Below are positions 28,679 through 38,593 of a stretch of 45,139 bases of DNA, piece by piece. The DNA comes from a virus (Duplodnaviria > Heunggongvirae > Uroviricota > Caudoviricetes). The stretch lies in the IMG/VR virus record IMGVR_UViG_2713897161_000005; one strand, written 5' to 3'. The position numbers were made by a program, and so were the translations under genes. Below the pieces are notes generated by a model, which worked only from the letters and a program-made list of their open reading frames with translations, searched no databases and was not told where the DNA came from. Numbering within the stretch: the first letter of the stretch is position 1; the number at the start of each line of letters is the position of its first letter.

Positions 28679-29560
28679 NNNNNNNNNNNNNNNNNNNNNN
28701 NNNNNNNNNNNNNNNNNNNNNNNNNNNNNNNNNNNNNNNNNNNNNNNNNNNNNNNNNNNNNNNNNNNNNNNNNNNNNNNNNNNNNNNNNNNNNNNNNNNN
28801 NNNNNNNNNNNNNNNNNNNNNNNNNNNNNNNNNNNNNNNNNNNNNNNNNNNNNNNNNNNNNNNNNNNNNNNNNNNNNNNNNNNNNNNNNNNNNNNNNNNN
28901 NNNNNNNNNNNNNNNNNNNNNNNNNNNNNNNNNNNNNNNNNNNNNNNNNNNNNNNNNNNNNNNNNNNNNNNNNNNNNNNNNNNNNNNNNNNNNNNNNNNN
29001 NNNNNNNNNNNNNNNNNNNNNNNNNNNNNNNNNNNNNNNNNNNNNNNNNNNNNNNNNNNNNNNNNNNNNNNNNNNNNNNNNNNNNNNNNNNNNNNNNNNN
29101 NNNNNNNNNNNNNNNNNNNNNNNNNNNNNNNNNNNNNNNNNNNNNNNNNNNNNNNNNNNNNNNNNNNNNNNNNNNNNNNNNNNNNNNNNNNNNNNNNNNN
29201 NNNNNNNNNNNNNNNNNNNNNNNNNNNNNNNNNNNNNNNNNNNNNNNNNNNNNNNNNNNNNNNNNNNNNNNNNNNNNNNNNNNNNNNNNNNNNNNNNNNN
29301 NNNNNNNNNNNNNNNNNNNNNNNNNNNNNNNNNNNNNNNNNNNNNNNNNNNNNNNNNNNNNNNNNNNNNNNNNNNNNNNNNNNNNNNNNNNNNNNNNNNN
29401 NNNNNNNNNNNNNNNNNNNNNNNNNNNNNNNNNNNNNNNNNNNNNNNNNNNNNNNNNNNNNNNNNNNNNNNNNNNNNNNNNNNNNNNNNNNNNNNNNNNN
29501 NNNNNNNNNNNNNNNNNNNNNNNNNNNNNNNNNNNNNNNNNNNNNNNNNNNNNNNNNNNN
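28679..29560. other. N-run (882 nt, unresolved or masked) between the lysis cassette and packaging genes
   Basis: Continuous n characters; ORFs crossing it are artefacts. Confidence 0.99.
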
Positions 29561-29629
29561 CACTCCAGAAGTGATCACCACCCTGTCTACAGAGCCAGAT
29601 GTGAAGGATGATGAGTAAAATTATCGCTA

Positions 29630-30067
29630 TCATCGAAGGCATTGCGTCCTGATGTATTCCTGCAAGTAGTTAACCTGCGCGGTTATCCTGTCGATTCCAC
29701 TTCGGAGACGGTAATAATTGAGTTCAGCATCTGCTGTAAGTCTTGGGCTTTCTCCATCGCCCATGCTGCTGGCTCCGGTCGTTGGCTTTGCACAGGTGGC
29801 GGCGACTTGCAGGCGCTTACGACCAGCAGAAACATCAGCACGGAGGCTTTCGATAGTCGCGTTAGCATCAGCAAGCTCCTTTGTGTATCTGGCGTCGAGT
29901 TCTGCTACATCACGTTGACGCTTCTGCATATCAGCGATGATGGATGTGGCTTTATCGCGCTGGTCTTTGTAGGCGATGGCGTTATCACGGTAATGATTAA
30001 CAGCCCATGACAGGCAGACGATGATGCAGATAACCAGAGCGGAGATAATCGCGGTGACTCTGCTCAT
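29630..30067 (-). CDS. Rz: Spanin inner-membrane subunit Rz
   Basis: From ATG 30067 (overlaps the endolysin stop, ATGA): [31 protein letters not shown]... matches lambda Rz N-terminus from memory. Confidence 0.75.
29683..29874 (-). CDS. Rz1: Spanin outer-membrane lipoprotein Rz1 (embedded in Rz, +1 frame)
   Basis: 63-aa ORF wholly inside Rz; lipobox LVVSAC followed by a Pro-rich segment. Confidence 0.6.
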
Positions 30068-30567
30068 TGCTGCCCCCACAAACAGACTTCACGCTCAATA
30101 TCACGACGGGTCATCAGCCCTTTCCATTGCTTACCGCCAGCGTATGTCCAGCGACGTAGCTGGTCACATGCGCCTTTGATATCACCCTGGTTTATTTTGC
30201 GAAGAAGCGTCGATGTTCTGAAATTGCCAGCCCCCACGTTGTAGACGAACGAGTAAAGAGCGCCGCGCGTTGTTTCCGGTATATCGACTTTGATGTACGG
30301 GTTAATTTGTCTGGCGACCGTGGCAAGGTCTTTATTCAGGAGAGCTTTGCATTCTGCTTCGGTATACGTTTTACCGAGCATGATGTCTTTTCCTGTATGC
30401 CCGTAACATACAGTCCATACACCAACTATGTCTTTGTAAGGATTATGTCTCACACCTTCCAGACCATCGTTACCACTTGGGCCAGTGATTAACACAGATG
30501 CTATAGCAATAGCCCCGCCACTTATCGCCGCTATTACGCTATTTCGTAGTGCCGGTGACATTGCCAT
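30064..30567 (-). CDS. SAR endolysin (T4 lysozyme-like muramidase with N-terminal signal-anchor-release domain)
   Basis: Gly/Ala-rich weakly hydrophobic N-terminus ([19 protein letters not shown]), then E-x8-D-x5-T catalytic spacing ([17 protein letters not shown]). Confidence 0.75.
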
Positions 30568-30742
30568 TCAATCTGTCCTCGCGCTCTTTGCGCTTGTAGT
30601 ACCAGTTGATGCCAAATGTGCCGACAGTACAAAGAATACCAATGATGACAGCCCAGTCATTCAGGGAGAGAATGCCACCCATCGCAGTCAGTCCTCCGAA
30701 GCTGTAACTGAACCATTCTCTGATTTTGTCCATACGGTACAT
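30539..30742 (-). CDS. Holin (pinholin-like, dual-start motif)
   Basis: 67 aa with hydrophobic helices; N-terminus M-Y-R-M gives two in-frame starts (30742, 30733) separated by a basic residue; overlaps the endolysin 5' end. Confidence 0.6.
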
Positions 30743-31035
30743 GCTCTACCCCTTCATTGAGGGGATTTGCTCTATTTAATTAGGAATAAGGTCGATTACT
30801 GATAGAACAAATCCAGGCTACTGTGTTTAGTAATCAGATTTGTTCGTGACCGATATGCACGGGCAAAACGGCAGGAGGTTGTTAGCGCAACCTCTTGCCA
30901 CCCGCTTTCACGAAGCCAGCCATTGCGCTGGTTTTCTTTTATGCAAAGCACACCGCACCGTAGCCACAGCGGATAAGGTGATTATTTTTGTCTGTCTGGT
31001 ATTTGGTTTGATGTGCTTTCAGAAAGGTCGTGATT

Positions 31036-31071
31036 AAAACGCAAAAAGCCCCGAGCTATTAACTCAGGGCT
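31036..31071 (-). terminator. Intrinsic terminator ~55 nt downstream of the late promoter (tR'-like)
   Basis: Minus-strand RNA AGCCCUGAG-UUAAUAG-CUCGGGGCU (9 bp incl. one G-U) followed by UUUUUGCGUUUU. Confidence 0.55.
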
Positions 31072-31106
31072 TTATTTAACGAGTGCATTTATCCATCGTT
31101 GTGTCA

Positions 31107-31135
31107 AATTTACCCAACTTTATTCAAAAAGTCAA
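31107..31135 (-). promoter_or_regulatory. Late promoter PR' with Q-utilisation region
   Basis: Minus strand TTGACT (31130-35), 17-bp spacer, TAAATT (31107-12); the stretch beginning TTGACT...TAAATTTGAC..AACGATGG resembles lambda PR'/qut from memory. Confidence 0.6.
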
Positions 31136-31177
31136 TATAATGCCGTAAAGATGTTGCCATCCGTGGCAATCATGACG

Positions 31178-31801
31178 CTAACGTGTGACCGCATTCAAAA
31201 TGTTGTCTGCGATTGACTCTTCTTTGTGGCATTGCACCACCAGAGCGTCATACAGTGGCTTAACAGTGCGTGACCAGGTGGGTTGGGTAAGGTTTGGGAT
31301 TAGCATCGTTACAGCGCGATAAGCAGCGCTTGCTGGCATTCTTGAATAGCCGGCGCCTTTGCATCTTCCGCACTCTTTCTCAACAACTCTCCCCCACAGC
31401 TCTGTTTTTGCTATATCAACCGCACGACCTGTACCGTGGCAATCTCTGCATCTTGCGCCCGGCGTCGCGGCACTACGGCAATAATCCGCATAAGCGAATG
31501 TTGCGAGCACTTGCAGTACCTTTGCCTTAGTATTTCCTTCGAGCTTTGCCACACCACGGTATTTCCCCGATACCTTGTGTGCAAATTGCATCAGATAGTT
31601 GATAGCCTTTTGTTTGTCGTTCTGGCTGAGTTCGTGCTTACCACAGAATGCAGCCATGCCGAATCCGGCTTGTGATTGCGCCATCCCCATAGCAGCCATC
31701 ACATCAGTACCGGAAAGAGAGTCAGAAGCCGTAGCCCGTGGTGAGTCGCTCATCATCGGGCTTTTTGGCGAATGAAATTTAGCTACGCTTTCGAGTCTCA
31801 T
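31178..31801 (-). CDS. Q: Late gene antiterminator Q (lambda-type)
   Basis: 207-aa translation (MRLESVAKFHSPKSPMMSDSPRATASD...CGRCKGAGYSR...) is essentially lambda Q by my recollection. Confidence 0.85.
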   Translation of the reverse strand: MRLESVAKFHSPKSPMMSDSPRATASDSLSGTDVMAAMGMAQSQAGFGMAAFCGKHELSQNDKQKAINYLMQFAHKVSGKYRGVAKLEGNTKAKVLQVLATFAYADYCRSAATPGARCRDCHGTGRAVDIAKTELWGRVVEKECGRCKGAGYSRMPASAAYRAVTMLIPNLTQPTWSRTVKPLYDALVVQCHKEESIADNILNAVTR

Positions 31802-31986
31802 CGTCTTCCCCTCTTGCCCTGTTTGACCATCAGGACGCCGTTAACTATTACGTGACGCTCGCCTTTGCTGTCTCGGTTGTACTTGAGCACTGTTCCTCTT
31901 GCGCAGGAAAGCATCCTTGCCACTTCGGTCTGATTGCCTCGTGTATGGATAAGAAGCTCTGGTATCGTTTGAATTGTGGCGTTCAT
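31798..31986 (-). CDS. ninH: NinH-like small DNA-binding protein
   Basis: 62 aa; ...GNQTEVARMLSCARGTVLKY... resembles lambda NinH; directly upstream of Q. Confidence 0.55.
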   Translation of the reverse strand: MNATIQTIPELLIHTRGNQTEVARMLSCARGTVLKYNRDSKGERHVIVNGVLMVKQGKRGRR

Positions 31987-32345
31987 GCGTTCTCCAGTTC
32001 GGTGATTTTTATTCCAAGCCTTCCGCCTGGTACTTTCACACCACGAATTACGCGAATGTCATCGAATTGCTCGTCGTCTTCCGCAAATCCAGCGTGGATA
32101 AGGGAGTCGAGTAAACCTTTCAGGATGTTGTCGAGGTCGCGGCGGCGGGAGTCTGGAACGTCTGCGATGACTTTGATACGGAGTCGTGATTTGGTGAAAA
32201 TGTCTAACTTGAGTTGGCGGATGATTTTCTGAACGTCTTTTCTGTATTTCTGGCCTTTATCGCTAATGTAATATTGGCTTCCTCGTCTTCGCCAGTAGGT
32301 GTTCAGCGACGGCGGGTATGGAAGCACAAACTGATATTCGTTCAT
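31983..32345 (-). CDS. rusA: Holliday junction resolvase RusA
   Basis: 120 aa; MNEYQFVLPYPPSLNTYW...RRRDLDN...GGRLGIKITE matches the RusA pattern. Confidence 0.75.
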   Translation of the reverse strand: MNEYQFVLPYPPSLNTYWRRRGSQYYISDKGQKYRKDVQKIIRQLKLDIFTKSRLRIKVIADVPDSRRRDLDNILKGLLDSLIHAGFAEDDEQFDDIRVIRGVKVPGGRLGIKITELENA

Positions 32346-32632
32346 GACTTAATCTTCCCCTCCTTCAGCAGTATCGCCTGCGTCCTGATTACGCCTTCGA
32401 GGTGGCAAAGTCTGGCGTCTTTGTTGTCGAGGTTATGGGTGCGTCTGTCGATTTCATCGTGACACGCGCTACAAGCCCATGCGCCGATCAGGTCGTCAGG
32501 CTTCATTCCCGTTCCGCAAATTCCAGCCATCCGGTAATGTGCCAGAACTGTAGTTTCAGGATTGCCATTGCATACACCGTAAATACGTACCTGGCATTCT
32601 CTGCCGCGTGCTTCTTTGCGTAGGTTAGCCAT
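32342..32632 (-). CDS. DUF1364 family protein (YbcO-like, Cys-rich putative nuclease)
   Basis: 96 aa; RGRECQVRIYGVCNGNPETTVLAH...CSACHDEIDRR closely matches my recollection of DLP12 YbcO. Confidence 0.65.
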   Translation of the reverse strand: MANLRKEARGRECQVRIYGVCNGNPETTVLAHYRMAGICGTGMKPDDLIGAWACSACHDEIDRRTHNLDNKDARLCHLEGVIRTQAILLKEGKIKS

Positions 32633-32901
32633 TATGGTTCACTCCAGTAATTCTCAATTGCAGCAGCCATTCTCTGCATCCACTCAGCCAGCTTTAACGC
32701 GGCTTCTCTTTCAGAACCACATTTAGGGAAATCCTTCATTTCCATGCTGGCCTTATATGTTCTGAATGCCAGGTCTCCGGTAATAACCAACTCCTGATCA
32801 AGCACCGAGCGTTTATTCCGGTGTTGAACGTAATAGACAGATTCAGTCCGCATTTCTTCTCTGTCTTTTTTGAAGGAAATAAGCTCAGAGAAATCACTCA
32901 T
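32632..32901 (-). CDS. Hypothetical nin-region protein (89 aa)
   Basis: ORF coupled between NinF and the DUF1364 gene. Confidence 0.4.
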   Translation of the reverse strand: MSDFSELISFKKDREEMRTESVYYVQHRNKRSVLDQELVITGDLAFRTYKASMEMKDFPKCGSEREAALKLAEWMQRMAAAIENYWSEP

Positions 32902-33070
32902 CGTCTTCTTCCTCGTACATTGAGCTATTCGGATCGCTCATCAGTTCTGCGCAGCAATCGGAGCACACGTGAACTTCCAGCACATGCAGTTTCTGACCGC
33001 AGTTAGCGCACGTTAAAGCCCGCTCGACGCTTTCTTTCTGGTATTGAAGGGATTGGGATGGGCTAAGCAT
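32894..33070 (-). CDS. ninF: NinF (58 aa, Cys-rich)
   Basis: Uncalled ORF: [58 protein letters not shown]; matches lambda NinF from memory; ATG overlaps the upstream stop. Confidence 0.6.
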   Translation of the reverse strand: MLSPSQSLQYQKESVERALTCANCGQKLHVLEVHVCSDCCAELMSDPNSSMYEEEDDE

Positions 33071-37732: not shown

Positions 37733-38593
37733 TCACCTGTCGAAAAACACGTAGCCAGTTTTCGATACGGTGATTGCGGATGATGGTTTGGATTGTGGTT
37801 GAATAGTTTCTGGCTTCTCGTCGTTCCAGCGTTGACCGTTCAGGTAGCTCGATGGTAACAACCTGTCGAATCCGAACTGCTTACCATTCCTGCATGCGAT
37901 GTCTTCTGCCAGCATCGTGGCAAATTCGCTTGCCGTACCCCTGGTAGTTTTACGCCATTCCCTGAACTGTGTTCTGAATGCCGAAGCCGCGTTTTTCTTC
38001 CCGGCTTTCCGCATGCCTGCACACCAGAATATTTCCTCGAATGCCTTGTCGGTTTCTTCGTGACGGTCAGATGATTTTTCACACTCCGTCCGAACACTTT
38101 CGGACATAGTGTTTTTATTATTTCTTTTTTCTTTTGTAATAGTTTCTTTTGTGTGTCCCTGTTTTGGTGACAGCGCTGTCACCGTTTTGGTGACACTTTT
38201 TGTCACCAATGCAGTGACATTATCACCAGAGTAGTGACACCCTTCGATTTGCCATTCCTCGATGTTCTTGTTAGGCCCGATTTGCTGGCCTTCGCGAAGG
38301 ATAACCTTCATCGCGATAAGCTCATTCTTGGCCTTGTTTACCTTCTGTCTTGGCAGCCTGGTAATTTGAGCTAACTGACTATCAGAGATGCGGTCCATCT
38401 TTTTACCGTAGCCGTATGTTTTACGGCATATGGCGTGGGCAACCTTGCTCTGATTTTTCGTTAAATCTGCGCCGATAAGCTCTTCATACAGGGCATTTGC
38501 AAGACGGGTATAACCATCTTCAACTTCTGCCACACGACGCTCCACAGGCCGTTGTGAAGGCCTTAAATGTGTTACGGTTGCAAGATTACTCAT
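37733..38593 (-). CDS. O: Replication initiator O
   Basis: 286 aa; N-terminal ...[49 protein letters not shown]... matches lambda O; iterons inside the gene. Confidence 0.75.
38111..38242. repeat. Replication origin: iteron array with adjacent A/T-rich stretch, inside O
   Basis: Dyad repeats GGTGACAGCGCTGTCACC (38166-83), GGTGACActttttGTCACC (38189-207), AGTGACAttaTCACC (38213-27), AGTGACACC (38233-42); A/T-rich 38111-38151. Confidence 0.6.

Follow-up and report, generated by a model that had tools for sequence, protein, structure and literature searches.

The block at positions 31036 to 31135 of the minus strand is, judging by its sequence, very probably the cassette that controls the late genes of a lambdoid prophage, here of the P22 type with a short leader. 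It was analyzed within a viral stretch of 45,139 nucleotides, referred to here as the window, and its ends are exact: it runs from the -35 hexamer of a PR'-type promoter to the last U of a terminator tail. The sequence elements of the block were observed directly, as were the places where they lie, their identity to those of lambda and P22 and how widely they are conserved. A P22-type PR'/qut/tR' cassette is an already known allele and not a new one. The preliminary description of this DNA had proposed a PR'-like late promoter followed closely by an intrinsic terminator, and the elements found bear this out. It had named no strand for either; all elements lie on the minus strand, as do the neighboring genes in this region of the window.

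Genomic context of the late promoter block

The block is flanked by a lambda-identical Q gene on one side and a lysis cassette on the other, which is exactly where the late promoter and tR' of a lambdoid phage belong. The Q gene (31178 to 31801, minus strand), a 207-aa ORF encoding an antiterminator of the lambda-Q family, lies immediately upstream on the same strand as PR' and ends 42 nt before the -35 hexamer. Its product is identical to lambda Q at 206 of 207 positions and to P22 gp23 at 200 of 207; lambda Q and P22 gp23 have been reported to be interchangeable (PMC8022706). Downstream, again on the same strand, the lysis cassette comprises intact genes for a dual-start holin, a SAR-type endolysin and an Rz-like protein, with the holin start at 30742 (minus strand), ~300 nt beyond the terminator. 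The lysis genes of P22 are gp13 and gp19, whereas those of the window encode a 67-aa dual-start holin and a SAR-type endolysin.

Several further features of this region were recorded. Directly before the 67-aa holin is a CCCCU-CAAUGA-AGGGG hairpin (30742-30770, minus strand), and the holin itself begins MYRM, with two Met codons and Tyr-Arg between them. This hairpin and the MYRM start resemble the sdi stem-loop and the S107/S105 dual start of lambda, although the window holin is of a different type from lambda S. Antisense to the Q gene, a CII/C1-type site, TTGCGAGCACTTGC, occurs at 31501-31514 on the plus strand; ~230 nt farther along that strand (about 31738-31770), a T-run accompanies a strong hairpin, which ranked second for stability when the window was scanned. 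Site and hairpin are arranged like the features annotated in P22 as the a23 (PaQ-like) antisense promoter, C1 binding site and a23 terminator. The TTGC-N6-TTGC motif itself is no rarer in the window than chance would have it (3 found versus 3.2 expected). Long runs of N, visible as X-runs in the ORF translations, mask the window at ~28.6-29.5 kb and ~33.9-35.0 kb.

Promoter, Q-binding spacer and pause elements

PR' comprises the -35 hexamer TTGACT (31130 to 31135, minus strand) and the -10 hexamer TAAATT (31107 to 31112, minus strand), both of which are identical in lambda and P22. Between them lies a 17-nt spacer (31113 to 31129, minus strand) carrying the Q-binding element, which reads TTTTGAATAAAGTTGGG in the window and TATTGAATAAAATTGGG in the aligned lambda sequence. 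These spacers differ at 2 of 17 positions, and P22 has the same two substitutions. For the HK and mEp phages, GenBank notes describe a sequence "similar to lambda Qut site with 1-2 bp mismatch." The match to the promoter consensus is not significant when taken alone (4 sites found versus 3.9 expected); in a scan of 29.5-33 kb, TTGACT-17-TAAATT was the sole promoter-like site on the minus strand.

The transcription start was placed using the P22 annotation and lambda PR' numbering. On that basis, +1 is predicted to be position 31100, the first A of AACGAT, 7 nt past the -10 hexamer, and AACGAT itself (+1 to +6; 31095 to 31100, minus strand) would by homology be the sigma-dependent pause element. 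At +14 to +17 (31084 to 31087, minus strand), the pause-site tetranucleotide is TGCA, where lambda has TTCG. Set against the pause-site consensus, T+14 N Y+16 G+17 (bioRxiv 10.1101/2022.01.24.477500), to which lambda conforms in full, TGCA keeps T+14 and Y+16 and has A instead of G+17, a replacement found in every P22-type leader among the matches listed. The tetranucleotide tunes the pause and is not strictly needed for a cassette of this kind. Positions +16 and +17 are reported to influence pause capture and lifetime (bioRxiv 10.1101/2022.01.24.477500), and without G+17 the pause may be weaker or shorter than that of lambda.

Within the first 23 nt of the leader (31100-31078, minus strand), a weak 5' stem, AACGA.../...UCGUU, is predicted at about -4 kcal/mol. 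The same stem is found in lambda (locus L003, positions 788-810), where the pairing bases are kept and the loop differs; it is possibly incidental in both alleles.

Terminator hairpin and the remainder of the leader

Beyond the pause site, and before the first late gene is reached, there is an intrinsic terminator. Its core stem (31070-31048, minus strand; +31 to +53) is formed by the arms GCCCUGAGUU (31070-31061) and AGCUCGGGGC (31057-31048) around the loop AAU and contains 10 pairs, including 6 G-C and 2 G-U. Three A-U pairs extend the hairpin to 13 pairs (31045 to 31073, minus strand), with predicted energies of -15.2 kcal/mol for the core and -18.6 kcal/mol for the extended form. The U-rich tail, UUUUUGCGUUUU (31036 to 31047, minus strand), reads UUUUU GCG UUUU, i.e., a run of U5 and U4 interrupted by GCG. 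Among 204 hairpins adjacent to a T-tract, taken from both strands across the 45 kb of the window, this one ranks 4th in stability, and it is the first and strongest terminator past PR' on the late strand. The 71-nt leader as a whole folds at -24.2 kcal/mol (z = -4.1), and 0 of 200 shuffled sequences folded as well.

From +1 to the end of the stem is 53 nt, so the distance of ~55 nt in the preliminary description was accurate; the very short constitutive transcript that it implied also agrees with the positions of the elements, from which an RNA of ~60 nt would be expected in the absence of Q. Because release generally takes place 7-9 nt past the stem (U-tract length: PMC9388147), the 3' end of the RNA is predicted near +60, at ~31041-31039 (+60 to +62). 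Sequence variation in the stem is slight: in 69 leaders among the matches listed, one G-to-A change keeps its pair and two singletons break one. Since the stem is almost invariant, covariation cannot support the hairpin. No match was returned when 29500-33000 was searched against Rfam at E<=1.

The stretch of late leader that remains before the holin start (30743 to 31035, minus strand) was examined by alignment with lambda and P22 and by folding. Homology to lambda resumes at ~30915 (TTCGTGAAAGCGGGTGGCA...), ~190 nt before the holin, and continues to the holin. Within this part, a hairpin, GGCAAGAGGUUGCGCUAACAACCUCCUGCC, followed by GUUUUG (30868-30897, minus strand), a short way upstream of the holin, is kept in lambda and P22; possible roles are those of a second, weaker terminator or of an element in the processing or structure of the late leader. 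On the plus strand, antisense to the leader, the terminator-like hairpin GAAGCCAGCCATTGCGCTGGTTTTCTTTT (30912-30935) is present in the window and P22 and absent from lambda. This hairpin could halt backward transcription toward Q.

Comparison with lambda

Alignment with the lambda late promoter, one part of a check suggested in the preliminary description, supports the assignment. From -35 through +8, the two sequences are identical bar 3 bases, two of them in the spacer and one at -2, and AACGAT is intact; the -35 and -10 hexamers, AACGAT and the spacing are the same in both. Farther into the leader, +9, +11, +15 and +17 are changed, +18 to +23 are identical and divergence is complete beyond. 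Lambda sequence from +24 to about +420 is replaced in the window by ~160 nt of unrelated sequence. Whereas lambda transcription ends at +193 to give the 194-nt 6S RNA, the predicted end point in the window is at ~+60, ~130 nt sooner. The lambda hairpin is also longer and stronger (-26 kcal/mol, compared to -15 to -19 kcal/mol in the window). The statement in the preliminary description that the lambda 6S terminator is much farther on, at ~190 nt, was right: the U-run of tR' occupies +188 to +193, and the tR' termination site has been placed at +193 (PMC4914094).

A second proposal, that the Q engagement site is compressed between the -10 element and the terminator, did not hold. The Q-binding spacer, AACGAT at +1 to +6 and the +16/+17 pause are at their lambda positions, and spacer, pause element and pause position are all upstream of the hairpin, which starts at +28/+31. 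With the loading elements thus at lambda positions and upstream of the hairpin, a compressed site is unsupported, and only the post-loading leader is short. In effect, the leader past about +24 has been swapped for a shorter module, and the loading site is unaltered in position.

The P22-type allele and its distribution

Although the arrangement had been described in terms that implied an oddity, it is the standard P22-type allele, which is annotated in P22 and is about as frequent as the lambda allele. In the RefSeq and TPA records of P22 (NC_002371/BK000583), "P late or PR'" is given at 37852-37880 with a lambda-like qut site, the 5' nucleotide of the P late RNA is given as 37887, 7 nt past the -10 element, and "t late or tR'; antiterminated by gene 23 protein" is given at 37917-37945, i.e., +31 to +59; the TPA_inf record phrases these features as "similar to phage lambda," which makes them partly inferential. 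The window is 95.5% identical to P22 (NC_002371/BK000583) over 109 nt, and the two share the promoter, both spacer substitutions, the initial transcribed sequence, the stem arms, the U-run and the distance to the terminator. They differ trivially, in the loop (UUUAACC in P22, UUAAUA in the window) and at -2, where the window has A (TGACAC) in place of T or C. An A at this position is rare, occurring in 2 of about 120 loci among the matches listed. Block identity rises to 99% for mEp235, HK97 and HK542. At the homologous place, the annotation of Salmonella phage Emek has a qut site and a rho-independent terminator, and for HK140 and others the promoter and qut are annotated.

A megablast search with the Q-holin intergenic region matched 176 phage records, 65 of them at full length, and the 111-nt promoter and terminator block was found at >=80% coverage, and conserved almost to the base, in 83 phage records, including P22, HK97, HK022, HK620, epsilon34, Sf101, Emek and the mEp/HK series. 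Across 5,426 complete Escherichia coli genomes, the short leader (+9 to +71) was present in 315 and the lambda leader (+9 to +198) in 413. A further sample, made up of the window, a few reference loci and IMG/VR contigs with a lambda-type -10/pause core, contained at least 69 P22-type and at least 53 lambda-type leaders among the matches listed.

Variants of the spacer (and hence of the Q-binding element, QBE) assort freely with both types of leader. This free assortment indicates that the promoter/Q-loading module and the leader/terminator module are separate mosaic units. The sequence from +1 to +58 is nearly invariant in the 69 P22-type leaders among the matches listed, and at least 5 unrelated sequences, one of which is lambda's own post-tR' sequence, join right past the U5 run. 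Junctions with unrelated sequence just past the U-run mark the terminator as the boundary of a discrete functional module.

Individual genomes provided additional observations. A prophage of the standard laboratory cloning strain E. coli DH5alpha (NZ_CP026085.1; locus L126, positions 1792-2563) has a 207-codon Q gene and a 100% identical short leader from +9 to +71. In the P22-like Salmonella phage S9-5 (MW722521.1; locus L127, positions 1317-1564), ninH is followed by the leader from ~+9 and the terminator, with no Q gene or PR' between ninH and the leader; phage NM-3 gives the same partial match. The gap in S9-5 reflects either a deletion of Q and PR' or an assembly or annotation problem. 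When species-representative genomes were scanned for the short-leader signature, 2 matches were obtained in all, one of them in an E. coli contig. The second match, exact over the signature, lies in a 10-kb contig (JAEZIN010000021.1; locus L129, positions 2891-2925) of a metagenome-assembled genome (MAG) labelled Bacillota, and this contig is most likely mis-binned.

Proposed operation of the late switch

By homology to lambda, we infer a transcription start, a pause, termination and Q-dependent read-through for the window. Host sigma-70 RNA polymerase would start constitutively at PR', with +1 at about 31100 (minus strand), and would pause at ~+16 as sigma region 2 re-binds the -10-like AACGAT at +1 to +6. 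In lambda, sigma region 2 bound to +1 to +6 holds a scrunched complex at +16/+17 (bioRxiv 10.1101/2022.01.24.477500). Without Q, the polymerase would be expected to escape and terminate after ~60 nt; a very short leader RNA would be released, and the holin, endolysin, spanin and virion genes downstream would stay silent. Once accumulated, the lambda-type Q would bind its site in the promoter spacer and load onto the paused complex; Q and NusA would then form a nozzle on the RNA exit channel, and the polymerase would read through the hairpin and all later terminators. This scheme draws on the well-established Q-lambda pathway, in which Q first docks on the QBE and then on the paused complex; Q and NusA together build a nozzle that blocks formation of the terminator hairpin, the RNA being threaded through the Q nozzle at a length of 15-16 nt (PMC9388147). 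As the predicted release point is only ~40 nt past the pause, the arrangement implies that modification by Q has to be finished by the time the polymerase leaves +16. Such early completion is consistent with the nozzle model.

Comparable control is found in other phages. The Stx phages have a different Q type. Like the window, they have a constitutive late promoter that is terminated just downstream in lysogeny, and the short RNA is a by-product of Q control; their 258-nt primary transcript is processed to 74 nt, and a regulatory function has been shown for the resulting StxS (PMC7547250). A passage of the same article, citing Roberts, Roberts, Hilliker and Botstein (1976), mentions short antitermination-regulated RNAs from the late promoters of P22, 21, phi80 and 82 (PMC7547250). 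As described in the literature, phages 82 and 21 follow the same logic of Q gene, promoter, sigma-dependent promoter-proximal pause and terminator (PMC9388147, PMC4914094), but their Q proteins belong to unrelated families, their QBEs are at other positions, and the pause of phage 82 is at +25.

Alternative explanations

The ~60-nt PR' leader RNA, which would be constitutive in lysogens, might double as a regulatory sRNA acting in trans on mRNAs of the host or phage or in cis on the late transcript, for which StxS and IsrK (Gifsy-1) are precedents. The PR'-tR' transcript of the Stx phages is an Hfq-binding sRNA, and the authors who described it propose antiterminated late promoters as a general source of sRNAs and count P22 among the phages with short RNAs of this kind (PMC7547250). 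The predicted structure of the window leader, with an A/U-rich and largely single-stranded 5' part of 30 nt followed by the hairpin and a U tail, would suit such a role, as would the near invariance of +1 to +58 in 69 loci (among the matches listed) despite their mosaic flanks. Pause and terminator function together with recent common ancestry, however, would explain this invariance equally well; the U tail has just five U before GCG, and the leader matches no Rfam family. A literature search returned no report of an sRNA function for leaders of the P22/HK type. On balance, we consider a second role as an sRNA unlikely. We are similarly doubtful of a broader proposition, namely, that the leader is a prophage-encoded regulatory RNA as StxS is, or that A+17 and a terminator ~40 nt past the pause set a Q-loading window or threshold other than that of lambda.

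It is less likely still that the main task of the hairpin is to form the 3' end of the early-right (Q) transcript, or to insulate the early and late regions from each other in both directions, with the true late barrier farther downstream. The hairpin does lie ~105 nt past the Q stop codon, where unmodified polymerase from PR would stop too, but this is compatible with a role as tR'. Its A-run upstream and U-run downstream mean that the plus strand reads the hairpin and then TTTATTTAA; the plus-strand version nonetheless failed the terminator scan. While more hairpins occur downstream in the leader, including the lambda-conserved one at 30868-30897 with its GUUUUG, none precedes or surpasses the hairpin of the block as a terminator past PR' on the late strand, and the P22 curators annotate the corresponding hairpin as the late terminator. 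Finally, the promoter and hairpin might no longer function, as leftovers of a prophage in decay, or might stand side by side by chance. The promoter consensus match, which alone is no better than chance, and the masked stretches of the window, through which prophage integrity can be judged only partly, leave some room for this reading. It is nevertheless very improbable, given a full-length Q at 99% identity to the lambda protein, lysis genes that are intact and a block 95-99% identical to those of viable, plaque-forming phages such as P22, HK97, HK022 and mEp235. Chance juxtaposition in particular was rejected on the intact Q and lysis genes and on the identity to viable phages.

Implications

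Read as a P22-type late regulatory cassette, the block fixes the start and strand of the late operon of this prophage for the purposes of annotation. More broadly, the 194-nt 6S leader of lambda is one of two about equally common alleles that are paired with the same Q protein. The short-leader allele would also provide a natural illustration that modification of the Q-lambda type is complete when the polymerase leaves the pause.
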